Shown here: positions 1,496-58,777 of the stretch, in pieces
Numbering within the stretch: the first letter of the stretch is position 1
How the letters are laid out: every line of letters starts with the position of its first letter
IMG/VR virus record: IMGVR_UViG_3300049783_000823
Length of the DNA: 64,000 bases
Direction: 5' to 3' (one strand)
DNA from: an uncultured virus (IMG/VR IMGVR_UViG_3300049783_000823)
Taxonomy: Duplodnaviria > Heunggongvirae > Uroviricota > Caudoviricetes
Notes under the pieces: model-generated
Seen by the model: only the letters and a program-made list of their open reading frames with translations
Databases searched by the model: none
What the model was told of the DNA's origin: nothing
Translations under genes and position numbers: made by a program

Positions 1496-1520
1496 CCCCG
1501 TAAATAAACAGGAGATTAAT

Positions 1521-1760: not shown

Positions 1761-1787
1761 TGCTTATGTATATACTAGGAGATTAAT

Positions 1788-2135
1788 ATGGAATTGCCAA
1801 AAAAGGTCAAGATAGCAGGGATCGATGTCAAGGTTGTCGATTGGGACCATCACGAAGCCGATGCTCAAAGAGCTTATGGTATATTTTCTAAGGTAGAAAA
1901 TTGTATAAAGATCGACACCACTTTAAGCAGCCTAAGGGTTACTGAAACATTTATTCATGAGCTTTTGCATGGTATTTGGGCAGGCTACCGTATGGATGAG
2001 AAAGACGATGAGGAGAGAACAGTGGCGATATTTGCTGCAGGTCTTACTCAAGTATTTAGAGACACTCCTGAGCTACTGGTGTTATTGCAGAAAGTGATAA
2101 AAGAGGCAGACTTAAGCGATACCCACTTGAAGTAA
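1788..2135 (+). CDS. HExxH zinc metallopeptidase-like phage protein
   Basis: ETFIHELLHG motif followed by DEE. Confidence 0.65.
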   Translation: MELPKKVKIAGIDVKVVDWDHHEADAQRAYGIFSKVENCIKIDTTLSSLRVTETFIHELLHGIWAGYRMDEKDDEERTVAIFAAGLTQVFRDTPELLVLLQKVIKEADLSDTHLK

Positions 2136-2143
2136 ACCACAAT

Positions 2144-2207
2144 GCCTCCTCTTGGATTCCCTTAATCGGGTTTCTGAGAGGAGGCTTCCCTTTTATTTTT
2201 TTTTTTT
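2144..2207 (+). terminator. long hairpin plus U-tract, intrinsic terminator
   Basis: GCCTCCTCT...AGAGGAGGC stem, TTAATC loop, long T run. Confidence 0.75.
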
Positions 2208-2238
2208 CTAAGGTTTATCTCACTTATGGACCTTACCC

Positions 2239-2270
2239 AACCCGTTAAATTAACCCCAGCCGGTCCCCCC
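2239..2270 (+). promoter_or_regulatory. putative phage RNAP promoter, class I (AACCCGTTAAATTAACCC)
   Basis: Exact 18-mer also at 19115 and 61945; variants at 48078 and 2570; all intergenic. Confidence 0.7.
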
Positions 2271-2705
2271 TATATACCCATTTATGTCCTATTTACTCAC
2301 CCTTACAGTATCCCAGTCGATAGTGGTTATAATATAGATAATATACTCTATTATCCCTTAAGGGATGGTATAAGGGATCCTTTAAGGTTTCCTATTAGGT
2401 ACGAGTTGGTATTTCTCTAGGACAATAAATCGGCCATAAATGATTAAAACGGAAGAGGAAATGTGTGTAAACACCTATGTCCTACTTGTTGACCTTTAAT
2501 TCGAAATAGGGTACAGAAGAGGTTAGAGGGGTGGACTCTTCAGAGCTATCGTTGGTTGAGGTCTTATTGAACCCGTTAACTTAATGAAGAAGATGCCTAT
2601 AAGGTTTCATGTGAGGTTTTTCATTAAAGCACTTGATAACGATTTGGGTTATCTTAAATTACGTAATAACAAGGACATGCGGGGCAAACAAATGAGAACG
2701 AGAAG

Positions 2706-3449
2706 TTGCAATTTTCGTGTAAGTGTATGAAAGATAAGGGGAAAATTGGGAGAGATAAAGTTGACGTTGGATGTTTGCTAAAGAACAACAGTCGTTCTGC
2801 AAAGTTTCTTAAAATAGCACAAAATAGATCACTCTCTGACTATACCGCAGTTGAACGCAGCAAGTTCTATGACAGGACAAGAGCGGAATACCGTAAAACG
2901 ATTTACAAAGAGAGACCTCCTGTAAAGGCTCTCGTATATAAAACATTAAAGAGCACACAGATTCCCAAAATAGCTCCACGACCTCGTATTGAGGAGATGG
3001 AGATTGAACACGTCACAATGGAATCGCTGATTGCTGACATTCCTGTAGGTGGACGGCCTGTAGGATCATTCAAGATTAAGACATTTATGACAGAAGACGC
3101 AAGGTTAAGGCTTTCCATGCTAGGGTTCGACCCTATGGAAGAGCTGATTAGGACGTATGATGAAGCTACAGCTCTGCTGGATAGGGAGATGAAGAAGGAC
3201 AAGCCAGTCGCTCTTCTGGTGGCTACATATTTTAACACAAAATCAAAAGCAGCAGCTGATCTACTTAGATACGGCTATGCAAGAATCCCTGAGGGGCAAC
3301 AACCGCAAGAGAAGGACATTACACCAGTGAGAATTAATCTTCAAGGTGTAGGTCACAAACCAATGGCCGGTGAGGGTGAACTGATAGTGGACCCCACTGA
3401 TGCTGAAATAATGGATAACACAATAGAAGAGGGTGTTTATGAAGAATGA
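2706..3449 (+). CDS. possible terminase small subunit (true start probably near 2996-3017)
   Basis: Position upstream of terL; helical core LGFDPMEEL...LLRYGYARIPE; positional inference only. Confidence 0.35.
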   Translation: MQFSCKCMKDKGKIGRDKVDVGCLLKNNSRSAKFLKIAQNRSLSDYTAVERSKFYDRTRAEYRKTIYKERPPVKALVYKTLKSTQIPKIAPRPRIEEMEIEHVTMESLIADIPVGGRPVGSFKIKTFMTEDARLRLSMLGFDPMEELIRTYDEATALLDREMKKDKPVALLVATYFNTKSKAAADLLRYGYARIPEGQQPQEKDITPVRINLQGVGHKPMAGEGELIVDPTDAEIMDNTIEEGVYEE

Positions 3450-3577
3450 TGAAAACAAATCAAATGAGACACAAGGTGTTAATAGCTTTATATGCTCTGT
3501 GGCTTTCCTTATATTTGTAACCTTAGGTGAGCCTGATATAATTGATGGTATCGTACACCTATTGAGGAGCTTCGACC

Positions 3578-3811
3578 ATGATTCGCCTCTCTGATGTGTT
3601 AGACCGTATTGGTGCTCAGATTGTGCCAATATTTTCAATGTATGGTAATATGAATGGATACTTATTGTTCCTTAGATTTATATATGGGGTAGAATTAATG
3701 CTGGTCATTTCTCTAATGACACGTAATCTTTCTCTCATTGCTGTCACATTCATAGGGATGTCTATTATCAGTGACATCGTCTTTCTTAAACTAATAAAGA
3801 GATTAAAATGA
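3578..3811 (+). CDS. small hydrophobic hypothetical protein
   Basis: GAGGAG RBS; hydrophobic segments; coupled to next ORF. Confidence 0.4.
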   Translation: MIRLSDVLDRIGAQIVPIFSMYGNMNGYLLFLRFIYGVELMLVISLMTRNLSLIAVTFIGMSIISDIVFLKLIKRLK

Positions 3812-4254
3812 ATTATATTTATTCTGAAAGCGCAGAGGCTTTCACTAAAGAAAAACAGAAAGCTCATGCAGCTTCTTCAGCTGATTTTCAGCCACTTGTA
3901 TCTCTAGCTGATGTTGAGATATTCCCAGGCGACTTGGTGCTTATCGGCGCAGGTTGTGAGAAGAGGGGCGATTACGAGTCCTTTAAGGACATGGCTAGCG
4001 CTGTACCTGCCAATTTTGAAATGCTGAGCGCTTTCCTGCGAAGAATGCACAGTGTTATTGATGTAGATAGTGTTGACGTAGATAGTGTTGACGTAGATGC
4101 TGTCGATGTCGAGGCATTTAAGCAAGAGTACCCTGCTTCTTTTGAAAGGTCTGAAGCGGGGCCTACTGCGCCGGAACCCATGCAAATCGTCGGTAGACAT
4201 ATTGACCTTCAGATAGACGAATCGACAGAAAACGAAGACACATTGTCTTCATAG
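3808..4254 (+). CDS. acidic hypothetical protein with DVDSV repeats
   Basis: ORF with tandem 15-nt repeat at about 4060-4110. Confidence 0.55.
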   Translation: MNYIYSESAEAFTKEKQKAHAASSADFQPLVSLADVEIFPGDLVLIGAGCEKRGDYESFKDMASAVPANFEMLSAFLRRMHSVIDVDSVDVDSVDVDAVDVEAFKQEYPASFERSEAGPTAPEPMQIVGRHIDLQIDESTENEDTLSS

Positions 4255-14607: not shown

Positions 14608-17600
14608 ATGGTAAACGTAACAACTGACATTTATGACAAATCTGTAAACAGGTCTGCAATGGTCAGACTATATGAAAAGAGAGTCGTATCTAAGGTGGAC
14701 TTACTTTTGTCAGAGCATAAAGCCCGCGTTGTGAAGCTTATAGAGGGAGGCCGCTTAGATAGAAAAGGGGCGGCTCTCCTGAATAAGTCAATAGAGCGTG
14801 AAATAAAGAATTCATTTAAGCAAATATATGGTACAGCCTCAAGGTCTTTATTAGATCTTGTCGCTGACCAGACCTCTTATATGTATCAAAGCATTGAATC
14901 AGCAACTTCTAAGATATGGAGAGCTAAGAAGCCTCCGCTTAGGGTGTCTGAGGATATAGTGCTTAAGAAGCCTTTGTACAAAAATAAGACGCTCTTAAAA
15001 GGGTGGGAAGGCGTAAGCACAGGAGAGCGTAAGCGTATCTCAGCCGTAATAAGAAGAGGTATTTCAAAAGGCTGGACTGAAGCTGAGCTTGCCAAAGAAG
15101 TAAGACGTGGCAGTGTGTTTAAGATAACGAGAAATCAATCTAGAACATTAGTCACTACAGCTATAACATCCGTTAAGGCTCAAACAGATCATGCTGTGTA
15201 TGAGGCAAACGAAAATCTGATGAGAGGCTGGCAATATGTCTCCGTACTAGATTCTCGGACTACAAGTGTCTGTGTCCATAGGGATGGAAAAGTCTATCCT
15301 ATTTCTGAAACAGAGATGCTTCCACCTGCCCACTATGGTTGCAGGTCGGTGACAATTCCTGTGGTTAAGTCATATGATGATTTAGCCAAGATGGAAGGTG
15401 TTGCCCAGATACGGAAAAGAAACTTAAAAGACCTAACAGCTAAGGAGATTAGCTATTATGATGGTCAGACACCTTTAAAGGAAACATATGATGGATGGCT
15501 TAGGCGACAACCTGTTAACGTTCAACTCAGACACTTGGGAGACTCATCTAGACTGGCACTGTTCAGGTCAGGACAACTTACTATTGATAAGTTCACTAAT
15601 AGTTCTGGCAAATCGGTCGGCATTAAAGAGCTACGAAGAATCACAGACTCAGGATATGATGTCCCAGGACAGACTCGGCGGTTTGCGATGGCCAAGCAGC
15701 ACCTTGATTCTCTTAAATTGACCGCGAATTACCCAGATGAGCTAGTTCATGATAAAGCATTAAGGAAAAGCCTTCGAGAGTACTACCTGCTACAAGCGGG
15801 TGAGCTTGACGGTCAACTGTCGTTGACTAACTATCGTGGCACATTGATGAGTAGCAAAAGAAGCACAAAAACAAGAGTCCTGTCTTCACCTCCCACGGAA
15901 GAGAATTTAAAGTTCAATCCAATAACAGGCAGGTACGAAGACGCGAGACTGTACCAACCGCATCCAGGCGTTCTGGAAAACTCTTACAAATTGATAGATG
16001 AATCAATACTCCCTGATGGCGATAAGCTGTTCATAAAGGGTATCGTTGGAGACCTTAGAGATAAGATGGGCGTAAATGAAAGAGCTGCTGTGGCGGAGAA
16101 CCTTAGAATTGTACTAACACGTGCAAGGAAAGATGGAAAGCCTTGGGCAAATCTCAAAGCTGTCTTGAATGCTCAGATGAAGTTTGATGTTATGAATGTA
16201 TCAGATTACATGGAAACGCAATTAAGGAAGAATTCTAAGCTTCTCCACAGGTTGAAACAAGATAACTATATTGACCCAGTACTAGGTGAAGTGCAATTGC
16301 AAGACTTGCATGATAACTTCATTAAGAATATATTCGCTAAAAATAAATGGGAAGATACGGTGGCTCCTAAGATTGCAAAACAACTTAGAGGTATATTGGA
16401 TCTTAAGATTCCACTGAAAGTCAGAAACAGGCTAGACAACGAACAGCTGCAAGAGTTCTATCTAAGGTTTGCCAATAGGCTTGCCCTTGCTGATTCTCCT
16501 GATAGAGATCAGTTAGCTGTTACGCTTGGGCGTGACTTATATAACATGGCCAACTACCGAGGGTCGCGAGATCAGTGGTATAAGCTAGGGTTGAAGTTAC
16601 TTGATGAAGCAGATTCAAAAGGTATCTTCAAATTAGAGACGTTCGGCGTACAGAAAAGACGAATGAAGAGTAGGTTAGGGAGTCATTACTTCGGACCTTA
16701 CTATGACACATTCGCAGTAAATCTCAGGATTGTAGACCCTCGTATACAGGAGTACGCCAGACTTACGAGACAAGTTGATGTGGGCTTAAGGGTAGCAGTT
16801 ACAAACCCTAAGAATAGATTAATTATTCGCCCAGGTTATAAGACATACTTTGTCGATCGAGGGCTTTTGGGTTACAAAGATACACGCATTCCTATCACTT
16901 CAACAAACTCTTTTTCAGGGTTTCCAACTGAGCTGGTGGACAAAAACCTGTCTACTGCACTTAACTGGGCGGCAGACAGTAAGTACAAAATTGATGAAGA
17001 CTTTCATGACTTTATTAAGAAGTTGATTAACTTTGAAGATGATAGAGGGAGAGCAAAATACTTCCACGATCTTAATGAGTATAGATCGTATATCATTGAA
17101 AGAGGAGATGCCTACGAGAGATTCAAGGCGATGGACTGGTTAAGAGATGGCAACAAAGCGTTCTCCAATCATAGCTTCGTAGATCATCGGGCTAGGATAT
17201 ATGAGCGCGGTTTAATCGGCCCTCAATCAGGAGAGACATTTCGCCCTTTCTTGAACAGTGCTGAAAGTAAACTATTTTCCAAAGATGGCTTCCATGATTT
17301 TGAAGACCAGATAGGGGCTTTCCTTGGCGGTCTCTCGGATAAGCTGGAGGGCAAACACAACTCTCTAACAGTCTTGGGGCGAAAAGCGATCGCCCATGAG
17401 TGGAGGGATGAGATGGTGAAAATCGGCCAGCACATGCTCAGAGGCAAGCCCTCAGACGTCCGTGCGGTGCTCCAGTCGAAATTCATGGCCCAAATTGAAG
17501 GTGAAGAGCAAGGAAAGGCACTACGGTATGCAATCGAGCTGGCTAAGATTTCTGATCACTTAGATGGGAACTTTTCAAGCGTAAACTTAGAGAAGCTTAA

Positions 17601-19089
17601 CAAATATAAAATATCAGTCGCATTAGAGCAAGATGCTTCCTCAAGTGGTGCTCAGATCATTGCGTTAACAACCAAAAATAAACAGCTAGCTGAGATGTCT
17701 AATGTTGTAGCTACAAATCAAAAGAGAAGACTCTATGATGAAATTGCTGCAGCTACATTTAACGACCCTAGATTCAGGGAACTTAATCTTAAGTTAGGCT
17801 TAACTGAGAAGGATCTACGAAAAGCAGCCAAGGCTCAAAACATGGTTACATTCTATGGGGCTGGAGATAAGACAGGCATACTGAACGTTGAGAATAAGCT
17901 TGCTAAGGTATTAGGGAGAGACACTAATGTCTTGGTCGTAAAAGCTGCGGAGCGTGATGCTGTTTTGAACGAGATATCAGCCAGGATGGCAAAGTATACA
18001 GACCTTGACCCTGTCATGCATGATGAGCTTAAAGCCTTACGCAAGGATATCAAAGACATCTTTGATCGTGGGGAAGTTCCAGGTGATGATATAATGAGAC
18101 AGTTATTCTTTCTTGACCCGAAGACAAAAGATTTCGTGGAGAAGATGACTAGGAATTACGGCAAAGTGATAACACCGAAAGACTTCCAAACAATAGCGAA
18201 TATTATGTCAGAGAATTTGGCTACACAAGTCCCTATCTTAAAGGATTTTACCAAGTTCTTCGGTCGTTTAGCTGAGGATTTTGTCACATACGCTGACCCT
18301 CAAAAGAGTTCAAAGTCTCTTGCTGCATTCCTTGAGATGCAGGCTAATGGTGTACGTAAGAAGCGCCCTCCTGAATTCCTTGAGCGTTTTAAGTTCTGGG
18401 ATCCAAATGGTTCGCTTTCTAAGCTTATCTACGGAGTGCCTGATAATAAGCTTCCGAAGAGTTGGACCAATATACCTTGGGTTAACTTTGATGGCAAAAC
18501 TATCGAGCAAAATTTCACGCAAGTATTTGAGCAGAGATTGAGCTACAAAGACAAAGAAGGGAAATGGATAACCAATATACTTCAAGTTCCGCAAAAGACA
18601 GATCCCTCTTTTTGGGATGAAGTTCGTAATAAAACAGGGACTATTAATGACATCGTTGATGCTCAAAAGGCTAGGACAGCTTTTGCGGTGAACGGTAACC
18701 ATTCTAATGACGCTGTTATTGTGAAGCGTTTTCACCTTTGGGGACAGAAGAATGGTGTGCAAACATCTACAATTCATGATGCGTTTTTCACTAATGCAGC
18801 GGATGTTGTGAAAGCTAAAGAAGGCATTCGTAAGACTTATTCAGAAATGGCTAAGACTAATACGATCAAAGCTACTCTGGATGAAATGCGTAGAAGAGGT
18901 CTGCCTAAAAATCTTTATGATAGCTATTTGAATGAGGCCATTGAAACTGGGTTGATACCTGTTGTGGGAAGGTCTAGGGTAGGGGGTAGGCTATTAACTG
19001 ATTCTGACATACTCACACCTGAAGAGATCCTTGACAAGGTTCCAACTGATTACAAGAGCAATCGCAGTTGGTATGGAATCGGTCAATAG
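14608..19089 (+). CDS. MuF/SPP1-gp7 head morphogenesis protein fused to a T7-like single-subunit RNA polymerase (candidate virion RNAP)
   Basis: N-terminal WQYVSVLDSRTTSVC...PPAHYGCRS; C-terminal DHRARIY, EQDASSSGAQ (A), RKAAKAQNMVTFYG (B), TIHDAF (C). Confidence 0.9.
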   Translation: MVNVTTDIYDKSVNRSAMVRLYEKRVVSKVDLLLSEHKARVVKLIEGGRLDRKGAALLNKSIEREIKNSFKQIYGTASRSLLDLVADQTSYMYQSIESATSKIWRAKKPPLRVSEDIVLKKPLYKNKTLLKGWEGVSTGERKRISAVIRRGISKGWTEAELAKEVRRGSVFKITRNQSRTLVTTAITSVKAQTDHAVYEANENLMRGWQYVSVLDSRTTSVCVHRDGKVYPISETEMLPPAHYGCRSVTIPVVKSYDDLAKMEGVAQIRKRNLKDLTAKEISYYDGQTPLKETYDGWLRRQPVNVQLRHLGDSSRLALFRSGQLTIDKFTNSSGKSVGIKELRRITDSGYDVPGQTRRFAMAKQHLDSLKLTANYPDELVHDKALRKSLREYYLLQAGELDGQLSLTNYRGTLMSSKRSTKTRVLSSPPTEENLKFNPITGRYEDARLYQPHPGVLENSYKLIDESILPDGDKLFIKGIVGDLRDKMGVNERAAVAENLRIVLTRARKDGKPWANLKAVLNAQMKFDVMNVSDYMETQLRKNSKLLHRLKQDNYIDPVLGEVQLQDLHDNFIKNIFAKNKWEDTVAPKIAKQLRGILDLKIPLKVRNRLDNEQLQEFYLRFANRLALADSPDRDQLAVTLGRDLYNMANYRGSRDQWYKLGLKLLDEADSKGIFKLETFGVQKRRMKSRLGSHYFGPYYDTFAVNLRIVDPRIQEYARLTRQVDVGLRVAVTNPKNRLIIRPGYKTYFVDRGLLGYKDTRIPITSTNSFSGFPTELVDKNLSTALNWAADSKYKIDEDFHDFIKKLINFEDDRGRAKYFHDLNEYRSYIIERGDAYERFKAMDWLRDGNKAFSNHSFVDHRARIYERGLIGPQSGETFRPFLNSAESKLFSKDGFHDFEDQIGAFLGGLSDKLEGKHNSLTVLGRKAIAHEWRDEMVKIGQHMLRGKPSDVRAVLQSKFMAQIEGEEQGKALRYAIELAKISDHLDGNFSSVNLEKLNKYKISVALEQDASSSGAQIIALTTKNKQLAEMSNVVATNQKRRLYDEIAAATFNDPRFRELNLKLGLTEKDLRKAAKAQNMVTFYGAGDKTGILNVENKLAKVLGRDTNVLVVKAAERDAVLNEISARMAKYTDLDPVMHDELKALRKDIKDIFDRGEVPGDDIMRQLFFLDPKTKDFVEKMTRNYGKVITPKDFQTIANIMSENLATQVPILKDFTKFFGRLAEDFVTYADPQKSSKSLAAFLEMQANGVRKKRPPEFLERFKFWDPNGSLSKLIYGVPDNKLPKSWTNIPWVNFDGKTIEQNFTQVFEQRLSYKDKEGKWITNILQVPQKTDPSFWDEVRNKTGTINDIVDAQKARTAFAVNGNHSNDAVIVKRFHLWGQKNGVQTSTIHDAFFTNAADVVKAKEGIRKTYSEMAKTNTIKATLDEMRRRGLPKNLYDSYLNEAIETGLIPVVGRSRVGGRLLTDSDILTPEEILDKVPTDYKSNRSWYGIGQ

Positions 19090-40576: not shown

Positions 40577-40606
40577 GCGGAAAAAGCGGTATCTTATATG
40601 AAGAAG
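40577..40606 (+). promoter_or_regulatory. putative early promoter, class II
   Basis: GCGGAAAAAGCGGTATCTTATATGAAGAAG, 28/30 identical to 42545-42574. Confidence 0.7.
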
Positions 40607-40640
40607 GTAAGAAGTTAAATTAAATAAATAAGGAAAAATT

Positions 40641-42282: not shown

Positions 42283-42505
42283 AGGACACGTAGTTTCAGC
42301 TGAGACATATATGGAAGAGGTGTTTGAAGAGATTCAGGAAGAGTATACAGTTTCTGAAGATAACGCTGACTGGACAGGCTTTGATTCATTTCGTCTTGAC
42401 TTTAGTTCGTTTGATTGGAAACGAGGTGAGCCTGAGCCGATGGTCAAAGAAGAGCATGACGTCTATCTTCCCGAAACAATGCTTGAAGAACCTCTATCCT
42501 TCTAA
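42272..42505 (+). CDS. small acidic hypothetical protein
   Basis: GGGAG RBS; D/E rich. Confidence 0.5.
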   Translation: MHHKGHVVSAETYMEEVFEEIQEEYTVSEDNADWTGFDSFRLDFSSFDWKRGEPEPMVKEEHDVYLPETMLEEPLSF

Positions 42506-42544
42506 CGAGGGCATATAAACCTATCCCTTTTCTCCAAAATAAAC

Positions 42545-42574
42545 GCGGGAAAAGGGGTATCTTATATGAAGAAG
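42545..42574 (+). promoter_or_regulatory. putative early promoter, class II
   Basis: GCGGGAAAAGGGGTATCTTATATGAAGAAG. Confidence 0.7.
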
Positions 42575-42631
42575 ACAATAAGGTCTAACTCACAAACGGC
42601 AAGTATGCCATAATTAAATAGAGGAAATATC

Positions 42632-42949
42632 ATGAAAGAAATAACTATGAAAGAAGTAATTAAGACATTAGAGGGTATGAAAGAAATAGCATTTAGCTTC
42701 ATTGCATGGTCTGCAATCGTGTTCGTGTCGTTAATACTCTTCGTAATTGGATCAGCTACAACCTTCTGGGTGTTTACATTTGTAAGCAAAGGCGGCCTTG
42801 CGTTAGTTACATTAGCCTTCAGCTTCCTTGCTGCAGCTGTGTTCATGTATGCAGGTGTATCAGTTACGAAAGCAATACTACAATGGCGTGAAAATCATAA
42901 GGCAAAGACTTCTGATTATGTTAGATCGCTTGGAAGCGAGGAATCGTAG
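42632..42949 (+). CDS. membrane protein with 2 TM helices
   Basis: GAGGA RBS; hydrophobic segments. Confidence 0.6.
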   Translation: MKEITMKEVIKTLEGMKEIAFSFIAWSAIVFVSLILFVIGSATTFWVFTFVSKGGLALVTLAFSFLAAAVFMYAGVSVTKAILQWRENHKAKTSDYVRSLGSEES

Positions 42950-43010
42950 GCGAAGGTACAGTAGTCGTTGAGGGTTATTTTCTACCTGCTTCACAGGCGG
43001 AAGTAACCCT

Positions 43011-43220
43011 TGACACCTTGTTCCTAAACAAAGACTACAAAAGAACATTCAGGCGATTGAACAAGAGAGACATTAGCTTTACAGAAGAGTCAACACAAGT
43101 GTCACTTTTTGGCTCGGTGTTACGAATGTTGTTTGATGTGTCTGATGAAAGGTGTGTTCCCTTCTTCGTGAAGGAAGAGGACATATACAATTTAGTTAAG
43201 AAGATTCACAGCTAGTGTCA
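43011..43220 (+). ncRNA. candidate structured non-coding RNA
   Basis: Closing TGACAC/GTGTCA and nested stems, between a hairpin and a terminator. Confidence 0.35.
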
Positions 43221-43223
43221 CCC

Positions 43224-43270
43224 CCCTCATAACCCTAATCGGGTTGTGGGGGATTTTAATTTTTTTTTTT
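43224..43270 (+). terminator. intrinsic terminator with TAATC loop
   Basis: CCCTCATAACCC TAATC GGGTTGTGGGGG followed by a T run. Confidence 0.75.
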
Positions 43271-43291
43271 CAATAATAATAAGAGCATAAA

Positions 43292-43447
43292 ATGCCAATA
43301 ATACATTTCATATTGTTACTCCCGTTACTGTCAAAATTGTTGTTTTTCTTTGCTACAGTTTTGAATACAGCGGCTTCTATCTTACCGGCTGCACTTATGT
43401 TTGGGGTGTCTTCAGTAATTGGAGCAATACAATACTTATCTAAATAA
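43292..43447 (+). CDS. 51-aa hydrophobic peptide (below track cutoff)
   Basis: MPIIHFILLLPLL...; fills the gap before the RNAP gene. Confidence 0.4.
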   Translation: MPIIHFILLLPLLSKLLFFFATVLNTAASILPAALMFGVSSVIGAIQYLSK

Positions 43448-43459
43448 AGGACAGAGTAA

Positions 43460-46400
43460 ATGATGAAACAAAAATTAGTCAACTCAATAATAGAAAGATT
43501 GGAAACAGAAGTATCGCCAAGGAATCCTGTGAAGTTCTTAAAAGATCTAGACGCAAGCGTGATCACAGACCAGGCAATTGGTTACATATACCTTTACACA
43601 AGAGTAGGTAGAGGTAGCCGAAAGAAGTCAGTGCTGATGGCTGAAATCATATCAGCAATAGGCCACGGTGTACGTGACAAAGCAGGTCTCAAGAAGAATA
43701 GCGCATTGGCTGCAAAAGCTGGCGCATTTATCTTGTACACGTTTGAGGTACTTGGGTATCTCCACACATTGAAGGGACGAGCTGGAAATGGTCACAGCAC
43801 ATATCTCATAGAAGTGGATGATGAAGAAGGCTTGTCTTTATTATGGAGCAAGCTGGAGGCTGATAAAACAGAGAAGCTCCCATCATTAACGCCACACGTA
43901 CCATGGTTGTCAACTAAACATAGTACAGGCGCAAGGCTTGTGAAGACACAAGATAAGGGTGTACTGCAAGAACTGTCTATTGAAAACTGCCCGCTGGTGT
44001 ATGAGTCAGTGAACAGGTCTCAACAAGTTGGCTGGCGTGTTAATGAAGAGATATATGAGATATACACGTGGGCGTTACGAAACAAAACAGACGCTTTCTC
44101 AGATATATGGGAGATTCAAAATCCTCAAGCAAAGGCCAGCAAGACGCGTGAAGCAAAAGCTGTTGGCGACATAGCGAAGAGGTTCCTTGGAAAGACCTTT
44201 TATCATCTATATTATCTTGACTTTAGAGGACGTAAGTACCCAGCTACGGCATACTTTCATGAACAAGGGACCGATCTGAGTAAAGGCTTGCTGCTCAGAG
44301 AAGATAAAGCTCCAATAGGCGAACAGGGCTATTACTGGTTACTGATAAGTATCGCATCCAATTGGGCAGGTGACGCTGGTCGTGAAGATGGTCTCAAAAC
44401 TGATAAGATACCTTTGAACGACCGTGTGTATTGGGCGCTAGATAATGAAGAGATTCTGTTATCATATGTTGAGAATCCAAAGGTCAATCAAGGGTGGATG
44501 AAAGCTGACAAACCTTGGCAATTCTTAGCGGCTTGCAACGAATGGTTGAACCTGATAAGATGGCAGGAAGCGCATACGGGACATAAGGTGTTAGGATATG
44601 ACGGAGAGGTTACCATATCTGATCCTGATTATGAAGATTATAGCTATGAAAGCCACCTTGAGTGTTATATCGATGGTTCCAATAATGGGTCTCAGCATTT
44701 GTCAGCATTGACCAGAGATGATGTAACAGCACCGCATGTCAATCTAGTTCCTTCAGACCTTCCTGGAGATCTATACAAATATGTGGCGGATCATGTATGG
44801 GAGACTATCGACAAGGAGAAAGATGAGCTGACTCGTAGGGAGTTTAAAGCATGTGAAAGCGTCATCGATACCCTTGCTGATGAGAAGACTCAGATAAACT
44901 TAGCGCCTCTCAAGTCAGAAAGAAGGAAAGAGCTTATTGAAGACTTGATTAAGTTTAAGAGAGCTGAGGCAGAGACTATCGGTAAAGCCGCCTGCGTATT
45001 CTGGAGCAATGTGAAAGATGCAAAGCACCGAAGAAAGGTCGTGAAGCGTTAATAACATGGCGCTTTTAAAACAATGTGAATTCGGGGAACATCTAGAACA
45101 GACAATCCCGAGCCAAGCTTAGCTAAGGCTTTGAAGGTGTAGAGACTATCCTGAGAAGGAGTACACTCAAGTGAGTGGAAGCGCATTGGGTCAGAAATGA
45201 TCATGATATAGTCCGATCTACATGGGGACATGTAGTAATTTAAGGAAGCTTATGAGGCTTATTGTGCTAAAGCGATTGAGCATTATGGCGAGTTTGCTAA
45301 ATTAGATTGATATATATTTAACGAATATATATTTAACATAAATGAATGTTATGACGCTCCCGTATGGCGGAACAGCGTATGGTTTGGGTTAATTCGGCTC
45401 AATTAAAACACCTTTAATTGCTGGGACATCCCTCTGGGACAATCAGCAGCCAAGCTTAGCCTTAGGGCTTTGAAGGTTCAACGACTATTCCGAAAGGAAG
45501 TACACTCAAGTGAGTGGAAACGGGGTGCACCGAAAGGTGAAGATATAGTCTAGTCTGCATGGTAACATGCAGCAGATCGTGGTCTCCAACGTTAGGAGAA
45601 GAATGTGAACAAAGAAGAAATACTAAGATTATACGAATATAGGGATGGGGAACTTTATTGGAGAGTAGCTAGATCCAATAGGGTTAAAGTAGGGCAACTC
45701 GCTGGTGATGTTGATGGGAGAGGTTACAGACGTGTGTACTCAAACGGCAGGCACTGGAAGGTACACCGACTTATTTGGATTATGCATAACAGATTCTTAG
45801 ATGACAATGAGATCATAGATCGCATAGATCGAGATAGGACAAATAATAGGATAGAAAACCTTCGCTTGTCAAATAAATCAGCTAATGCCATAAACTCAGA
45901 TTTTACGGAAAGAGCAAAAGGATACCACTATGATTCCAATCGTGGAAAGTGGCGCGCTCAAATATCTATAAATAACAAGTCTGTTACATTAGGCAGATTC
46001 GATACAAAAGAAGAAGCTCAAGCTGCTTATGCTGAAGCTTGCAAGACCAGAAAACAATAAAGACCACGATCGGGGCGTGCTTAACGAACACGCTTGAATA
46101 CAACGCAACAACAGATAGACGATGCTAGGAAGCATGGCATTGAGAGCCTGATGACTATGGAGCACAAATGGGGAAGCTATATGGGAAGAATGGTTTTCGA
46201 GGATTGTAGAGTCTCTCTCAAGAAGCCTATGCAGTTGTTAAGCGTTTTTGAACAAGCAGGCAAGCTGGCAGAACAAGAAGATAGGTTCTTAAGCTGGCAT
46301 ACACCTGTGACGAATTTCCCTGTGGTGCAGCATTACACAGAAGGCACAACCAAAAAGGTTCACATACAGTACGGGCCACAGGTAGGTGAAAAGCTATCAA

Positions 46401-46759
46401 CGGGCTACTATTCGAATGATAGACAATTACATATATGTTTTATCGAACTTGTGAAACCTAGCAAGAGGAAACAGTCCTCTGGAGCATCGCCTAATGCCAT
46501 CCACTCACTTGATGCCACGCATCTAACAATGACGGTATGCGCTGCGCCGTTTCATGTGACGACTATCCATGACTCTTTCGGATGTCTTCTCGGTGATATG
46601 TCAGACTTATTTGTAATTGTAAGGCAATCTTTTGTAGATTTATATAAAGAGAATCCATTGGAATCCCTGATGGAAGAAATAGGAGGTGACATAACAACGC
46701 TAGAAATGGGTAATTTAGATATTGAAGCAATAATGGACAGCGAATACGCATTCGCATAA
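43460..46759 (+). CDS. T7-like RNA polymerase, spliced: join(43460..45049,45345..45389,46106..46759), 762 aa
   Basis: DFRGRKY, IDGSNNGSQH (A), RKVVKR|NVMTLPYG (B, restored by splicing), PNAIHSLDATHL, TIHDSFG (C). Confidence 0.9.
45050..45344 (+). mobile_element. group I intron 1 (no intact ORF; AP2 remnant)
   Basis: Exon ends in U; P1 AGCGT/GCGCT with U-G; P7 GACTAT (45144)/ATAGTC (45208); P10 TAACAT/ATGTTA; terminal G45344. Confidence 0.9.
45390..46105 (+). mobile_element. group I intron 2 with homing endonuclease ORF
   Basis: P1 TTGGGT/GCTCAA; GACTAT (45483)/GATATAGTC (45542); terminal G46105 restores frame LG|QQQIDD. Confidence 0.88.
45605..46060 (+). CDS. intron-encoded HNH-AP2 homing endonuclease, likely inactive
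   Basis: VHRLIW...IDRIDRDRTNNRIENLR and AP2-like KWRAQI...LGRFDTKEEAQAAY; AGGAG RBS. Confidence 0.85.
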   Translation: MNKEEILRLYEYRDGELYWRVARSNRVKVGQLAGDVDGRGYRRVYSNGRHWKVHRLIWIMHNRFLDDNEIIDRIDRDRTNNRIENLRLSNKSANAINSDFTERAKGYHYDSNRGKWRAQISINNKSVTLGRFDTKEEAQAAYAEACKTRKQ

Positions 46760-46772
46760 CAACGGAGAAGGT

Positions 46773-46937
46773 ATGAATTTTTCAAGACAGTTTGTAGTAC
46801 TACGAGACCACCATGTGGTGGCTTACTTTAACACAAGAGAAGACGCATGGGAGCACTATGATAAGCTTAAGAAAGGACACCCTTACACCACTTTTGGTAT
46901 ATTTGAAAAGATAGATAGACCAACCGAAACATCATAA
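46773..46937 (+). CDS. 54-aa hypothetical protein (below track cutoff)
   Basis: GGAGAAGG RBS; MNFSRQFVVLRD... Confidence 0.5.
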   Translation: MNFSRQFVVLRDHHVVAYFNTREDAWEHYDKLKKGHPYTTFGIFEKIDRPTETS

Positions 46938-46952
46938 CTTAAAGGAAACAGT

Positions 46953-47381
46953 ATGAATATTTTATTAAAGACATTTAGATACCTCCAACGACCTGTTAGC
47001 AAAGACTACGAGAAGGAAAAGAGGGCCGTTAACTTTATACACAAGCTGATCGATAAGAATCCTAAAAAGGGTGTAGAAACTCGAAAGTTCGTGGAGGACA
47101 GCATAATATCTCAACTCGAATCTATCAAGTTCAAAGAACGCCGCGTGAATGTGTATTGCAGGAAAGGTCTTGTGTCTAAGTTCGGTCTGATAAAGCTTTA
47201 TACAGAGGACGGTGGCATTGCTGGTTCATTTTCTTACTTCATGGTTGGCGATCGTGATCTGAACGCAAACTACCTTAGGATGCAAGCGGCTATTCGAGGG
47301 GAGGAGGTGCCAGCTTTTGACCCTTATTCTAGCCTCAGATATGACTATTGGAAATCAAAGGACAGGAGAAACAAATGTTAA
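46953..47381 (+). CDS. hypothetical protein
   Basis: AAGGA RBS. Confidence 0.6.
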   Translation: MNILLKTFRYLQRPVSKDYEKEKRAVNFIHKLIDKNPKKGVETRKFVEDSIISQLESIKFKERRVNVYCRKGLVSKFGLIKLYTEDGGIAGSFSYFMVGDRDLNANYLRMQAAIRGEEVPAFDPYSSLRYDYWKSKDRRNKC

Positions 47382-47677
47382 ATGAAGAAGAAAGACTTAC
47401 GCTGAAGAAGGCAATACAGGGATGGGGTGAAAACTTCCAGTTGGAGATGGTTATAGAAGAGTGCTCTGAACTGATTCTTGCAATACAACACGCCAAGAGA
47501 GGACGTCATGAGAATAATGATGCTTTGATCGAAGAGTGCGCGGATGTTCTAATAGTTTGTGAACAGATGAGTATCATCCTCGGTGAGGATAAAGTCCACA
47601 ATGTCGTCAGAGAAAAGATGGAACGTCTGGCTAGAAAAGTTGCATCCTGTAACCCTAATCTGGAGACTATCAAATGA
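47375..47677 (+). CDS. MazG-like NTP pyrophosphohydrolase
   Basis: IEECSELI...IEECADVLI...KMERL. Confidence 0.75.
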   Translation: MLNEEERLTLKKAIQGWGENFQLEMVIEECSELILAIQHAKRGRHENNDALIEECADVLIVCEQMSIILGEDKVHNVVREKMERLARKVASCNPNLETIK

Positions 47678-48036
47678 GAAAGTTTGAAAGAAGTGAAGAT
47701 CTCTCGTATCCTCTTCCAGGGCTACCTGAAGACTTTAGATTGCAAATACAAACTGACATCAAGGCTATTGAAGATTCCCTCTCTAATGATGCAGGCGTTG
47801 AATACGAACCTGAAGACTATGGCTGCTTCTATTGGATAGAGTCTTCTGCGGAAGCACAACGTCTAGCTGATCGTTTTGATAAGATCGTCTGGGAACGTGT
47901 TATAATCAAGAACGGCCTTGTGAGCATGCTTGAAATCCAGGGAGACTCATATGGCGTTCAATACTATATGGCTACGCGTCATGTTACAGAGAGTATGCGG
48001 CGCGGAGTTTTGAGACAGAAACTAGAAGGAGGCTAA
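47674..48036 (+). CDS. hypothetical protein
   Basis: ATGA coupling. Confidence 0.55.
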   Translation: MRKFERSEDLSYPLPGLPEDFRLQIQTDIKAIEDSLSNDAGVEYEPEDYGCFYWIESSAEAQRLADRFDKIVWERVIIKNGLVSMLEIQGDSYGVQYYMATRHVTESMRRGVLRQKLEGG

Positions 48037-48077
48037 ACAAAACTTATAATAGAAAACAGTGACGATTTACAAAAACC

Positions 48078-48095
48078 AAACCGTTAGATTAACCC
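48078..48095 (+). promoter_or_regulatory. class I promoter variant upstream of ssb
   Basis: AAACCGTTAGATTAACCC, 16/18 match. Confidence 0.6.
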
Positions 48096-48133
48096 TGCGA
48101 AGGGTTCTTTACCCTTAACAAATAGGATTTTAA

Positions 48134-48766
48134 ATGATTATTAGAAAAGCAACAATATTTTTCCCGAAGTTAGTAAAACCAAGCTCACGTTTTAACAAAG
48201 AAAACCCTACATGGGAACTTCAGATTAGAACAAAAAGTAAAGCCCAAAGAAACTCTTGGCGAGAAATGGGTCTAAATGTGAAGCTTGTAGAAGATGACGA
48301 AAACGGTGATTTCTACAGAGTTAACCTGAAGAAGAAGTCTAAGAAGCAAGACGGAACCCCAGGTAACCCTATCGAAGTTTGTGATGGGAATCTGAACCCT
48401 ATTGATCCTAACACTATCGGCAATGGCAGCGTCGGTAATATCCGTATCTTTCAGTCAGAATATGAAAACGCAGAAGGTAAAACTGCAATTCGCTCAACAC
48501 CTATGAAAATCCAACTCACTAAGCATATTGTCTATGAGTTTGAAGAAGAAGAAGGTTTTGAGATGCTTGATGAAGAAACTGAAGTTATCGTTGCAGAACC
48601 AGATGAGCTGGAAGACGATATCGGCAGAGAAGATGATGATGAGTTTGACGAAGATGAAAGTCCGAAAGCTGCGCCGAAAGCGACCGCAAAGCCTCCAAAG
48701 ACACCAAAGACACCAAAGCCCCCTAAGCCGAAAGTTTTAGATGATATTGAAGACGAAGATTATTAA
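48134..48766 (+). CDS. single-stranded DNA-binding protein (T7 gp2.5-like)
   Basis: IGNGSVGNI motif; acidic C-terminus ending in aromatic Y. Confidence 0.7.
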   Translation: MIIRKATIFFPKLVKPSSRFNKENPTWELQIRTKSKAQRNSWREMGLNVKLVEDDENGDFYRVNLKKKSKKQDGTPGNPIEVCDGNLNPIDPNTIGNGSVGNIRIFQSEYENAEGKTAIRSTPMKIQLTKHIVYEFEEEEGFEMLDEETEVIVAEPDELEDDIGREDDDEFDEDESPKAAPKATAKPPKTPKTPKPPKPKVLDDIEDEDY

Positions 48767-54225: not shown

Positions 54226-54858
54226 ATGAGTGTGCCTAAGTTCCCGCTAAGAGGAAAAGGTAAGATTAAATCTAAGAAGGCTTTCCTTCCTGACCTTCAA
54301 AATGAGCGTGTAAAACCTAACCAGATAACTAGCGTTTGGATAGACGAAGCAGGAGAGATATCTGAAAGAAAACCCTCAGTATCATTAGAAGGGCAGGTCG
54401 GAAAGCGTGTTAACCGAAAGAAATATGACGATCTTCCTAACGGTCATTGGGAGTTCGAGGGCGATATGCGAAGCGGAAAAGCTGTTGGCTTCATATACGT
54501 CATTAAAGATCTCAGAAATAATATGCTGTATCTTGGAAAGAAGAGTTATGTAGGGGCGGGTAAGTTAAACAAAGGTGTAGAGTCAAACTGGCGGTGGTAT
54601 ATATCGTCATCTAAACTCTTAAGTGAATCAGTTAAGACAAACGGTAAAGAAAACTTCAAATTTTATGCTATAGAAGAGTATAGCTTTAAAGGTGGGCTAA
54701 GCTTTGCTGAGACATGGTCTCTCTGTAAGGTGGAAGCTCTGAACGAAAACAGCCGTTGGTATAATGGTCTGATTGGGAAGGTATCTTGGAAAGTTAAAGA
54801 ACCTGTAACAGCTAGACACAGAAGGCGACTTCAACAGATAATAGATGGAGAGATATGA
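54226..54858 (+). CDS. GIY-YIG-like nuclease family protein
   Basis: GFIYVI...YLGKK...WRWYISSS...E...WYNGLI. Confidence 0.7.
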   Translation: MSVPKFPLRGKGKIKSKKAFLPDLQNERVKPNQITSVWIDEAGEISERKPSVSLEGQVGKRVNRKKYDDLPNGHWEFEGDMRSGKAVGFIYVIKDLRNNMLYLGKKSYVGAGKLNKGVESNWRWYISSSKLLSESVKTNGKENFKFYAIEEYSFKGGLSFAETWSLCKVEALNENSRWYNGLIGKVSWKVKEPVTARHRRRLQQIIDGEI

Positions 54859-55079: not shown

Positions 55080-56867
55080 ATGGGACGCATTGTAGAACAT
55101 AACAAGCCCTGCATTTCGTGCACCAGTTCAGACGCGATGCAGATATATGAAGATGGAGGGGCTAAGTGTTATTCTTGCGGAAAGTCCTTCCACCACTCAA
55201 AAGTTGAAAAGGAAAATATGACATCACCTAGGGGGTTTAAAGTACCAAAGAAAAGAGGGCCATTAGACCCTGAAGATTTTGCTAAAGCTAAAACAGAAGT
55301 AGTGAAGGCGACACCGAAAGTATCTTGCGATGAGATCGAAGAGTTTGGAGTGCGTGGTTTTAAAGACAGGCTTGTCAAGAAGGCAACGAACGAATTCTAT
55401 GGTGTCAAGGTAGGTTACGATTCAAATGGTCAGATAGATTCTCACTATTACCCTTACGGTAATGACAAAAAGCGTGGCTATAAAATCAGAGAGTTGCCTA
55501 AGACTTTCTCTTTCGTTGGCACATTCGGAGGTCTCTTTGGAAGAGAAAAGTTTTCAGCCGGAGGGAAGCGTCTCATCATAACGGAGGGAGAAGTTGATGC
55601 CCTTTCTGTTGCCCAAGCTTCTTTTGACAGGTATAATAAGTACTATCCTGTAGTCTCTCTGCCAAGCTCTTCTTGTTCCTCTGTGCTAATGGAAGAACGC
55701 GAATGGATTCGTAGTTTTCAAGAAGTAGTCCTATGGATGGATAACGATGAGGCGGGTATCACGGCAAGAGATAAGGCCATAAAGATAATTGGCGCTGATA
55801 AGGTAAAAGTTGTAGAGATTGCAGAAAATGACGCGTCTGATGTCCTCACAAGCGGTGAAGATGGCAGCAAGCGAATAATGGAAGCGATATGGGATGCGCA
55901 GATGTTCAAGCCTGCTGGCATTATTGGCCAAACAGAGCTTTGGGATGCGTTGGTAAACTACAACGAAATCAAGGCCATTCCGTATCCTGAATGTCTGACA
56001 GGGATTAACTCAAAGATAAAAGGGGCACGCTTGGGAGAGATTGCGCTCTTTATATCAGGGACAGGTAGTGGCAAGAGTACCATTGTTAGAGAAATAGGTC
56101 TTGAGTTTCTAAGGGCTACTGAAGATAAAATTGGTATAATTTCTTTAGAGGAAAGCCCAGGTGAAACTGCAAGATTGTTCTCAGGAATGGCTATCCATCG
56201 TAACCCTGCAGAAGAAGAAATACCTCTTGATGAGTTGAAGGTTGGCTTTGATAGTGTATTCGGCGAAGACAGGGTTGTTGTTCTGGATCATCAAGGCTCC
56301 ATAAAGGACGATAGCATTTTAGACCAGTTCGAGTACATGTGTCTCTCTGGCTGTAAATATTTATTCGTTGATCACATAACTATTTTAGTATCGGAAGGCG
56401 CTGATGGGCTGACAGGTAATGAGGCTATAGATAAGATTATGAATGACCTGCTGAGGCTGGCTAAGCGTCATACTGTTTGGATCGGCCTTATCTCTCATTT
56501 GAGAAAAGCAGAAACAGGTCGGAAAAGCTTTGAGGAGGGCAGGTTGCCATCTATAGATGATATACGTGGCTCAGGTAGTATCAAGCAGGTCTCATTTGAC
56601 ATAATAGCCTTCGCTAGAAATATGACGGCTAGACAAGAGCGTGTAAGAAACAGGATTGAGATGGCAATTCTTAAATCCAGAACAACAGGTAAAACAGGGC
56701 CAGTTCTAGGGGCTGACTATAATGTAAAGACAGGTCGTCTTGTAGCAGCTCCGCCTGACCTTGAAGATGATGAAGAAGCCTTTGGCGAGGAGAAGACGGA
56801 AACAGTAGTATACGAAGAAGCGTTATCCGAAGAAGATCTTATAAATAAATTCAAAAGAGACAAATAA
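55080..56867 (+). CDS. DNA primase-helicase (T7 gp4-like)
   Basis: CISC...CYSC Zn finger, TEGEVDA and DNDEAG TOPRIM, SGTGSGKST, VDHI, GSGSIKQ. Confidence 0.93.
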   Translation: MGRIVEHNKPCISCTSSDAMQIYEDGGAKCYSCGKSFHHSKVEKENMTSPRGFKVPKKRGPLDPEDFAKAKTEVVKATPKVSCDEIEEFGVRGFKDRLVKKATNEFYGVKVGYDSNGQIDSHYYPYGNDKKRGYKIRELPKTFSFVGTFGGLFGREKFSAGGKRLIITEGEVDALSVAQASFDRYNKYYPVVSLPSSSCSSVLMEEREWIRSFQEVVLWMDNDEAGITARDKAIKIIGADKVKVVEIAENDASDVLTSGEDGSKRIMEAIWDAQMFKPAGIIGQTELWDALVNYNEIKAIPYPECLTGINSKIKGARLGEIALFISGTGSGKSTIVREIGLEFLRATEDKIGIISLEESPGETARLFSGMAIHRNPAEEEIPLDELKVGFDSVFGEDRVVVLDHQGSIKDDSILDQFEYMCLSGCKYLFVDHITILVSEGADGLTGNEAIDKIMNDLLRLAKRHTVWIGLISHLRKAETGRKSFEEGRLPSIDDIRGSGSIKQVSFDIIAFARNMTARQERVRNRIEMAILKSRTTGKTGPVLGADYNVKTGRLVAAPPDLEDDEEAFGEEKTETVVYEEALSEEDLINKFKRDK

Positions 56868-58777
56868 TGACTGATAAAATAGAAACACCCTGGAGTTCCG
56901 TAGGTTACTTAACATACAAGAGAACCTATTCACGCCCCATTCCAGGGGAAGGCAGGACAGAAGAATTCCCTGAGACCATTGACCGTGTAATTAAGAGCTG
57001 TAGAGAGCAGCTCAAAGTAGGTTTCACAGAAGAGGAGGAAGAGACGCTTCGTGGTTACCTCTTAGAGCTTAAAGGATCAGTAGCCGGTAGATTCCTATGG
57101 CAGATGGGTACAGAGACAGTCGATCGAATCGGTCTTGCTAGCTTGCAAAATTGTGCATTTACAGTTGTTGATGACCCTATCGTGCCGTTCACTTGGTGCA
57201 TGGATATGTTAGCCCTAGGCAGCGGAGTCGGTTATAACATCCAACGGGAGCATGTCGAGAAGATTCCAGCCGTTCGAGAGTGGTTCGCCGCGCCTACCAG
57301 AGTGGACGATGGTGGGGCGGATTTCATAATTCCAGACTCTCGTGAGGGGTGGGTGCGTTTCTTAGCTAAGACGCTTAAAGCCGCCTTCCTATCGGAAAGG
57401 CAAGAAAAAGGATCTTTCACATATTCAACGCAAGTTATTCGTGGGAAAGGAACACCAATCAAGGGATTCGGTGGTGTAGCAAGCGGGCCTGAAGATCTGG
57501 TGAAAGGTGTAGGCCAGATAAGCGCAATCCTAGAGAAAAGGAGAGGAAAGAAAATCAGACCTATTGATGCCTTGGATATAATGAACATAATCGGTGCAAT
57601 CATTGTAGCCGGTAACGTTCGTAGATCAGCTCAAATTGCCATAGGTGATGGTGATGATATTGAGTTCCTTCTTGCAAAACGGTGGGATCTAGGGCACATC
57701 CCTCCTTGGCGTGGCATGTCTAACAACAGCGTGGTGTGCTCAAATATCGAAGAACTTCATGATTACTTTTGGGATGGGTATGAAGGAAAAGGAGAGCCGT
57801 ACGGATTAATCAATCTCGATCTGTCCAGAAAAGAAGGTAGATCAGGTGAGACAGAATATCCCGACCCTGAAGTCATGGGGTATAATCCGTGCGCTGAGCA
57901 ATCTCTTGCGCCATATGAGACATGCTGTCTGGCTGAGATCTATTTGCCAAACATAGACTCATTGGGCGAATTCCTTGATTTGCTGACATTGCTTTATAAA
58001 ATAAATAAGCACTCTCTTACACTGCCTGCACATCATCCTGAGACTGCCGCTATTGTCCATAAGAATATGCGAATGGGAATAGGTATGACAGGTATCATGC
58101 AAGCATCTGAAGAGCAGCTTAGTTGGTTGGATGAAGGTTATCGCTATCTTCGTGACTTTGACAACCGCTACTCTGAGCTGAAAGGCTTTGAAAGATCAAT
58201 AAAGCTTACGACAGTAAAGCCTTCAGGCACTCTATCATTGTTGCCAGGTGTTACTCCGGGTGTTCATCCAGGGTACTCACAGTATATGATACGTCGTATA
58301 TGTGTATCGGCGGAGCATCCTCTTATTGCCACATGTAAAGAGCATGGATATGAAATGGAATTCCAAAGAAGATTAGATGGTAGCGAAGATTACAATACAT
58401 ACGTTGTATCTTTTCCTTTCAGATACCCTGAAGGGACTATTCTTGCCAAAGACATGACAGCCATAAAACAGCTGAAAACTGTTAAGCAGATGCAGAAAGT
58501 TTGGTCAGATAATAGCGTCAGCTGTACAGTCTACTATCGGAAAGAAGAGATACCTGAAATAAAACAGTATCTTAAAGAAAACTATGCCAAGACACACAAG
58601 TCTTTATCATTCTTGCTACACAACGAGCACGGTTTCGACCAAGCGCCTTTTGAAGAAATTACGGAGGAATTATACAATGAAATGACTAAATCTACCAGCA
58701 CCATAACAGCTATTGCTGACCTTACAAGCTTAGGGTTAGAAGATGAATGTGCAAGCGGTGCTTGCCCTGTACGATAG
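56867..58777 (+). CDS. nrdJ: class II (B12-dependent) ribonucleotide reductase
   Basis: LQNCAF, GNVRRSA, NPCAEQ, TTVKPSGT, C-terminal CASGACP. Confidence 0.9.
   Translation: MTDKIETPWSSVGYLTYKRTYSRPIPGEGRTEEFPETIDRVIKSCREQLKVGFTEEEEETLRGYLLELKGSVAGRFLWQMGTETVDRIGLASLQNCAFTVVDDPIVPFTWCMDMLALGSGVGYNIQREHVEKIPAVREWFAAPTRVDDGGADFIIPDSREGWVRFLAKTLKAAFLSERQEKGSFTYSTQVIRGKGTPIKGFGGVASGPEDLVKGVGQISAILEKRRGKKIRPIDALDIMNIIGAIIVAGNVRRSAQIAIGDGDDIEFLLAKRWDLGHIPPWRGMSNNSVVCSNIEELHDYFWDGYEGKGEPYGLINLDLSRKEGRSGETEYPDPEVMGYNPCAEQSLAPYETCCLAEIYLPNIDSLGEFLDLLTLLYKINKHSLTLPAHHPETAAIVHKNMRMGIGMTGIMQASEEQLSWLDEGYRYLRDFDNRYSELKGFERSIKLTTVKPSGTLSLLPGVTPGVHPGYSQYMIRRICVSAEHPLIATCKEHGYEMEFQRRLDGSEDYNTYVVSFPFRYPEGTILAKDMTAIKQLKTVKQMQKVWSDNSVSCTVYYRKEEIPEIKQYLKENYAKTHKSLSFLLHNEHGFDQAPFEEITEELYNEMTKSTSTITAIADLTSLGLEDECASGACPVR

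Follow-up and report, generated by a model that had tools for sequence, protein, structure and literature searches.

Introns in phage RNA polymerase (RNAP) genes, of both the T7 type and the multi-subunit type, are already in print, as are tandem phage introns set around small exons. In the N4-like coliphages N4G2 and Sz33, the g16 intron interrupts RNA polymerase 2 subunit A, a T7-type RNAP gene; it is about 800 nt long, carries a nuclease ORF and self-splices, with splicing observed by RT-PCR (bioRxiv 10.1101/542787). Group I introns with HNH nucleases also lie at conserved RNAP residues in PhiPA3, where the nuclease gp210 is active (PMC11620839), and in AR9/PBS1 (PMC12350094), all of which have multi-subunit polymerases. 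Tandem group I introns with small exons, for which skipping was observed, are described in Twort orf142, Bastillevirinae phiNIT1 nrdE and SIOphi (PMC3073962 and PMC11878797); the interrupted genes there encode a tail tube protein, a ribonucleotide reductase, and a terminase or DNA polymerase, the SIOphi gene being given as both in PMC11878797. Finally, Pectobacterium phage PPWS1 (L399, about 2500-3280) and Pseudomonas phage Draal03 (L400, about 2490-3280) carry a core similar to those described here (75-79% over the aligned pieces) in motif B of a T7-type RNAP. Their cores are interrupted by a long insert, and the database records show split CDSs with the intron unannotated.

The window analysed here is a 64,000-nt stretch of an uncultured virus, which its terminase, major head protein and tape measure genes identify as a tailed phage. 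Its free T7-type RNAP gene (43460-46759, plus strand) consists of three exons and two group I introns, the introns flanking a 45-nt micro-exon in motif B. The N4-like g16 gene, by comparison, has one intron, a two-subunit enzyme and no micro-exon; the tandem systems of Twort, phiNIT1 and SIOphi are described in genes other than an RNA polymerase; and, unlike gp210 as reported, both nucleases in the window are damaged. Judged on their sequence, the introns appear to behave as phage group I introns with HNH nucleases generally do, with every testable group I feature found save a clear P10 in the second. The first-pass annotation had regarded two introns in a single-subunit RNAP as unusual, a view that two findings weaken: an intron core is present in this gene in 27 of 112 non-redundant protein-search loci (from the best 80 of 474 viral and the best 80 of 511 metagenome matches), and the N4-like RNAP II intron splices, as the preprint reports. 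Our literature search on introns in T7-type or single-subunit RNAPs, a leaky one that missed the N4 g16 preprint, returned nothing on the seven-site series or the motif-B hotspot of the clade described below.

The interrupted polymerase gene and its two introns

When joined by script, the exons, each a whole number of codons, encode 762 aa with zero internal stops, and the product matches Pfam PF00940 and contains the DxxGR motif and motifs A, B and C in that order. Exon 1 (43460-45049, plus strand; residues 1-530; Pfam RNA_pol, E 7e-31) holds the DxxGR motif, motif A, and motif B as far as the equivalents of T7 R627, K631 and R632. Exon 2 (45345-45389, plus strand; 45 nt; residues 531-545, T7 633-647) holds the end of the O helix with the equivalents of M635, Y639 and G640, and also spans two more sites used in relatives, inside the codons of Tyr537 and Tyr542. 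Exon 3 (46106-46759, plus strand; residues 546-762; Pfam RNA_pol, E 4e-25) holds motif C. Numbering follows an alignment of the intronless relative L037 with T7 RNAP and places the first intron between the equivalents of R632 and S633 (site 530) and the second between those of R647 and Q648 (site 545). In T7 RNAP, Y639 is the gating residue, R627, K631 and R632 bind the NTP, and M635, Y639 and G640 have described roles (PMC9836923). The R-x3-K-x7-YG motif that the annotation expected upon exon joining is found in the joined protein, and the sequence supports restoration of motif B only by double splicing.

The alignment to intronless homologs proposed earlier as a check yielded discrete insertions and colinear exons: the spliced RNAP is colinear with intronless relatives at up to 68% identity, and 85 non-redundant intronless relatives run colinear over both insertion sites. 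The closest cultured match to the host gene, the RNAP of Bacteriophage DSS3_VP1 / DSS3_PM1 (31% over 92% of exon 1), was matched in one unbroken piece, residues 44-530, unlike the split gene of the window. We take these phages to belong to the Naomviridae; they are too distant to place the window in that family.

Both introns match the group I model (Rfam RF00028; cut-off 50 bits), at 58.1 bits for intron 1 and 84.2 bits for intron 2, and neither Rfam nor a profile from 18 clade introns revealed further introns in the window. The junctions proposed in the first-pass annotation, 45049/45345 and 45389/46106, were recovered independently: a search scored only against a 93-sequence intronless profile returned exactly these four junctions, with a best score of 156.8 against 134.1 for the next best. 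Intron 1 (45050-45344, plus strand; 295 nt) and intron 2 (45390-46105, plus strand; 716 nt) both have a U before the intron, TAA as first bases and a terminal G, and lack P2. The core helices P3, P4, P6, P7 (with the G site), P8, P9 and P9.0 are present in both by Rfam alignment and folds, and the P7 strands noted in the first-pass annotation (45144/45208, 45483/45545) were likewise found. As assigned by inspection and comparison among introns, intron 1 comprises a P10 strand (45052-45058), guide (45059-45065), P3 (45072-78/45182-88), P4 (45081-86/45107-12), P7 (45144-48/45209-13), P7.1 (45149-60), P7.2 (45164-77), P8 (45189-202), P9 (45218-35) and P9.2 (45310-32). Intron 2 comprises a guide (45396-402), P3 (45409-15/45519-27), P4 (45418-23/45444-49), P7 (45483-87/45546-50), P7.1 (45488-99), P7.2 (45503-16), P8 (45528-39), P9 (45555-72), P9.1 (45575-84/46062-71, with an ORF inside) and P9.2 (46074-94).

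The pairings that define the splice sites are well matched to their exons. P1, with its U-G pair at the 5' splice site, spans 7 bp in intron 1 and 6 bp in intron 2, and across 58 related introns it averages 7.1 bp with the own exon as opposed to 3.0 bp with the exons of other sites. Moreover, all 52 of the 52 introns that could be scored for the variable P9.0 have a Watson-Crick pair there, whereas mismatched partners give one in 56% of cases. Covariation in P3 is modest (4.66 versus 3.81 of 6 pairs in the 29 of 58 introns that could be scored), and the P4 test, with several of its 25 rows mis-anchored, is weaker than those of P1 and P9.0. Intron 1 forms a P10 of 7 bp, while that of intron 2 with its own 3' exon is negligible (+0.6 kcal/mol), so that the 3' site of intron 2 has to be fixed by P9.0, P9.1 and its terminal G. 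We infer that both introns splice.

Two hairpins, P7.1 and P7.2, lie between P7 and P3' in both introns. This arrangement is a criterion for subgroup IA2, the phage type. The two hairpins are also named as class features in PMC3984707. Since P2 is absent, and the T4 and Twort introns have it, we use the label IA-like rather than IA2. The in-frame TAA and phase 0 pointed out in the first-pass annotation are present in both introns, though the TAA is not special across the 58 related introns: 39 of them start with TAA, 13 of these at phase 1, and just 29 have a stop in frame at the junction. We therefore rejected the in-frame TAA as a designed feature.

Endonuclease sequences within the introns

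The P9.1 loop of intron 2 contains a 151-aa HNH-AP2 homing endonuclease ORF (45605-46060, plus strand; Pfam HNH_3 and AP2). Its layout, HNH_3 followed by a DNA-binding domain, is that of I-HmuI (1U3E) and of HNH-AP2 phage homing endonucleases; it differs from I-HmuI in the AP2 type of its C-terminal domain and in an Arg that replaces the general-base His. This Arg is residue 73 (codon at 45821), aligned through a weak match (E 0.1) with I-HmuI H75, the general base (PMC3384342). All 40 other motif-bearing intron ORFs have His at this position. The metal-binding Asp and Asn are kept, and the Arg codon is identical in contigs of runs X3 and X4, both of which are possible sources of the window DNA.

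In intron 1, only the last 22 codons and the stop of a site-530 HNH-AP2 endonuclease are left (45242-45310, plus strand). This relic has neither a start nor an HNH domain and has lost most of AP2, the alignment indicating a deletion of about 420 nt; its identity to the ends of full-length site-530 ORFs is 76-86% for the six closest and 50-65% for six others. The general-base His expected of an active HNH enzyme is thus found in neither intron, intron 2 having Arg in its place and intron 1 no HNH domain. Because the intron 2 nuclease has lost this His and that of intron 1 is mostly deleted, both introns are probably unable to home by themselves.

A hairpin predicted by folding (45583-45599, plus strand) covers the purine-rich ribosome-binding site of the intron 2 ORF, a possible means of translational damping. 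A search for a sigma-70 promoter for this ORF gave 14 sites in 42400-48300 against 13.1 expected, none informative. Elsewhere in the window, a free-standing GIY-YIG (SegE-like) endonuclease gene (54226-54858) lies just upstream of the primase-helicase region.

Intron sites among related polymerase genes

Protein and pattern searches together yielded 130 non-redundant loci, 44 with an intron core, a set that the pattern searches bias upward for introns. In the protein-search subset, 110 loci cover motif B, of which 19 carry an intron in it and 91 do not; the frequency is probably an undercount, since it is based on the best 80 of 474 viral and the best 80 of 511 metagenome matches. We mapped 58 introns in 42 loci to seven sites of the RNAP gene, which lie after residues 249 (6 introns), 406 (6), 410 (1) and 530 (19), inside codons 537 (17) and 542 (2), and after residue 545 (7). 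They adjoin the DxxGR motif or sit in motif A or motif B, and four of the seven fall within a 45-nt stretch of motif B. The PPWS1 and Draal03 introns occupy a fifth motif-B site, inside the T7 V634 codon and 5 nt downstream of site 530. Genomes range from zero to four introns in this gene, and all 34 intron-bearing loci kept for the tree step yield a stop-free protein of at least 600 aa after in-silico splicing.

Tandem insertions in relatives leave micro-exons of 19 nt (L197, L214, L220, L265), 26 nt (L214), 15 nt (L190, L197) and 11 nt (L190); the 45-nt exon of the window is the longest seen, and its plain pairing of sites 530 and 545 occurs in no other mapped locus. Co-occurrence was too rare for a test of linkage or exclusion between neighbouring sites (7 loci for site 530, 10 for 537, 2 for 542 and 3 for 545 in the protein-search set minus the window), and both site-542 loci come from one assembly. 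At L197 (4483-5565), consecutive introns occupy sites 530, 537 and 542 around 19- and 15-nt exons; the third is cut off by the end of the contig, and a fourth may follow. L190 (4559-7118) carries three motif-B group I introns around 15- and 11-nt exons, the first with a KilA-N ORF, broken by a stop, in place of an HNH gene. All three cores belong to the site-545 clade, suggesting local copying or core exchange.

Site-530 introns are scattered on the RNAP tree, from which 23 of the 130 loci were left out as short or below 35% identity: presence requires 12 changes for 14 rows, compared with a mean of 13.3 when shuffled (80 of 500 shuffles as low), and L034 and L040, with near-identical RNAPs, differ in intron content. 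The intron cores group by site (12 changes versus 28.5 when shuffled, 0 of 200 as low; 7 of the 58 introns left out of this tree). Homing and loss would be expected to leave just such scattered presence alongside cores that group by site. On the core tree neither the site-530 nor the site-537 introns form a single clade, which suggests that cores were exchanged in addition to homing. The two introns of the window have a 60-nt stretch in common (82%), but their cores fall in different supported clades, and we therefore rejected the idea that one arose from the other by local duplication.

All 19 intron alleles at site 530 have CGT as the preceding codon, and a T at the end of this codon is present in only 15 of the 83 intronless alleles. 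The segments around the insertion sites are conserved (75th-94th percentile; p=0.03 over three regions). Conservation alone fails to explain four sites in 45 nt, since the most conserved segment, near residue 350, has zero introns in the sampled loci, as does motif C.

Some relatives carry unusual intron contents. The site-530 intron of L243 is 3408 nt long (617-4024, minus strand), with ORFs totalling about 2.2 kb inserted in P6 and another ORF, of 312 aa, downstream of P9; its three longest ORFs had no Pfam match, and they look like cargo genes inside the intron. L361 and L214 have non-HNH inserts inside the intron core. Genome-wide, 20 whole relatives gave 25 Rfam matches: 10 in the free polymerase, 9 in a MuF-fused polymerase, 4 in terminase and 2, both below cut-off, in ribonucleotide reductase. 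Nine of these genomes were chosen for a polymerase intron, and the other eleven have 3 matches, 2 of them in the MuF-fused polymerase. The fused polymerases of L401 (genome G006), L402, L406 and L408 also have motif-B introns; that of G006 has a tandem pair separated by an exon of about 19-20 nt, and the genome as a whole has 5 Rfam matches in the fused and 4 introns in the free polymerase. The window's own B12-dependent (class II) ribonucleotide reductase gene (56867-58777) is uninterrupted; two relatives have the weak matches in theirs. L385, a complete relative, lies in a Gammaproteobacteria bin, which we did not take as host evidence.

Probable origin of the introns and predicted dependence on splicing

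We consider it likely that the locus holds two homing introns that were acquired independently and are now in decay, and that each splices itself and both have to be removed for the full-length enzyme to be made. Each intron would fold into its own ribozyme, the guide marking the preceding U, and be excised in two GTP-dependent steps; unspliced RNA would stop at the first intron codon, so that full-length enzyme would come from doubly spliced mRNA only. We infer that each intron arrived by endonuclease-driven homing into a protein-constrained stretch, and that both now stand late in the homing cycle, with nuclease activity lost through deletion in intron 1 and through replacement of the catalytic His in intron 2. 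Constraint in motif B would let targets persist and make imprecise loss lethal. The 45-nt exon would then be the mere distance between two of the four sites used in the clade, and any exon skipping a wasteful by-product.

A reading with a modest chance of being correct is that the introns are past or present weapons and shields among co-infecting phages, in which a nuclease nicks the intronless RNAP gene of a rival and the occupied site is immune. Such a role is reported for the nuclease gp210 of PhiPA3, whose intron lies in a multi-subunit RNAP gene (PMC11620839), intact site-specific HNH ORFs occur in relatives at six of the seven sites, and damage to an early-needed polymerase would disable a rival; neither nuclease in this genome, however, looks active, and the immunity of intron-plus alleles is putative. 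Some HNH homing nickases cut both alleles. This reading is compatible with two decaying homing introns as an account of their history and is not a true alternative to it.

The window also encodes a second T7-type RNAP, which forms a fusion with a MuF minor head domain (14608-19089, plus strand; Pfam Phage_Mu_F and RNA_pol); uninterrupted and with motifs A, B and C intact, it is a candidate virion-packaged enzyme. A promoter-like repeat, its function presumed, lies upstream of the intron-bearing gene (42545-42582, plus strand), with a second copy at 40577-40614, both in the early region, and a second repeat class occurs at 2239, 2570, 19115, 48078 and 61945, ahead of replication and structural genes. 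A plausible cascade has the fused enzyme transcribe the free RNAP gene and the free RNAP transcribe later genes. The first-pass annotation had all downstream transcription depend on double splicing; the second polymerase, with its intact motifs, weakens this claim, and the dependence is limited at most to genes whose promoters are of the class read by the free RNAP, itself a putative assignment.

It is improbable that the introns are kept as a regulatory gate, whereby GTP- or translation-dependent double splicing would delay the second polymerase of the cascade and hence all middle and late transcription. The layout of the two repeat classes would suit such a gate, both introns persist without working nucleases, and a 'molecular switch' has been proposed for phage introns (PMC11878797). 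Moreover, 19 of the 25 Rfam matches in the 20 whole relatives fall in the two polymerase genes, although nine of those genomes were preselected for a polymerase intron. Intron sites and combinations, however, vary freely, and the cascade works without a gate, because most loci covering motif B are intron-free there (91 of 110, from the best 80 of 474 viral and the best 80 of 511 metagenome matches) and close relatives differ.

Equally doubtful is the proposal that motif B is a selected stacking ground, in which introns with dead nucleases would shield the RNAP gene from a rival's nickase and the stack would make late transcription conditional on ordered, GTP-dependent splicing. In this group of two-polymerase phages, up to three introns tile the 45 nt of motif B, with exons of 11-26 nt.

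The first-pass annotation further held that exon skipping would give an in-frame enzyme without the YG. The skip product would indeed be in frame, both sites being phase 0, and would be without M635, Y639 and G640, residues with roles described in PMC9836923; pairing speaks against a meaningful product, and relatives do not preserve the frame. Documented cases of skipping between tandem group I introns are those of Twort orf142 (PMC3073962) and of SIOphi, where it reached 47% of transcripts (PMC11878797), and P9.0 would discriminate only weakly between the two 3' ends (G-C versus G-U). Against this, pairing of the intron 1 guide is worth -5.8 kcal/mol (7 bp) for exon 2, as opposed to +0.1 kcal/mol for exon 3, and the 10-bp P9.1 of intron 2 (-18 kcal/mol) holds its own 3' end. 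Skipping would shift the frame at 6 of 8 motif-B micro-exons of relatives (19, 19, 19, 19, 26 and 11 nt, as opposed to 15 and 15 nt), and the in-frame 530 and 545 pair is confined to this locus among those mapped. Because guide pairing favours exon 2 and the micro-exons of relatives would frameshift, programmed skipping is unlikely, and a second, YG-less polymerase form with a role such as promoter-binding repressor is very improbable; skipping may occur as noise or a by-product, as in Twort and SIOphi.

It is hardly credible that the locus is a pseudogene, a split gene giving two polypeptides, or the product of misassembly. In favour of a split gene, a TTG at 46094 could serve exon 3 as an in-frame start, and bioRxiv 10.1101/542787 describes a non-splicing intron-like insert in a DNA polymerase, phage 10Gb g39, whose N- and C-terminal halves are made separately without splicing. 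A two-piece protein would, however, leave out exon 2 with Y639-G640, and all pairing elements are intact. Moreover, in runs from 2024 ice metagenomes that may be one campaign, contigs bridge the exon 1-intron 1 junction and the nuclease deletion (X5, which is not marked as a source of the window DNA) and the intron 2-exon 3 junction (X6) with zero differences and cover 43400-46723 unchanged (X4, a possible source).

Read as two decaying homing introns, the case in the window is by itself an ordinary selfish element. It has a consequence for annotation, in that gene callers skip exon 2 and report a broken polymerase without Y639. Greater use can be made of the clade, in which seven sites in a single gene, four of them in 45 nt and the majority with a site-specific HNH nuclease family of their own, form a compact natural series. 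This series would make it possible to test how 3' splice sites are selected by tandem ribozymes when the exons between them measure 11-45 nt, whether neighbouring introns block or help homing, and whether nuclease-less introns bring a benefit, and part of this may be testable in culture, because the cultured phages PPWS1 and Draal03 carry a motif-B intron.
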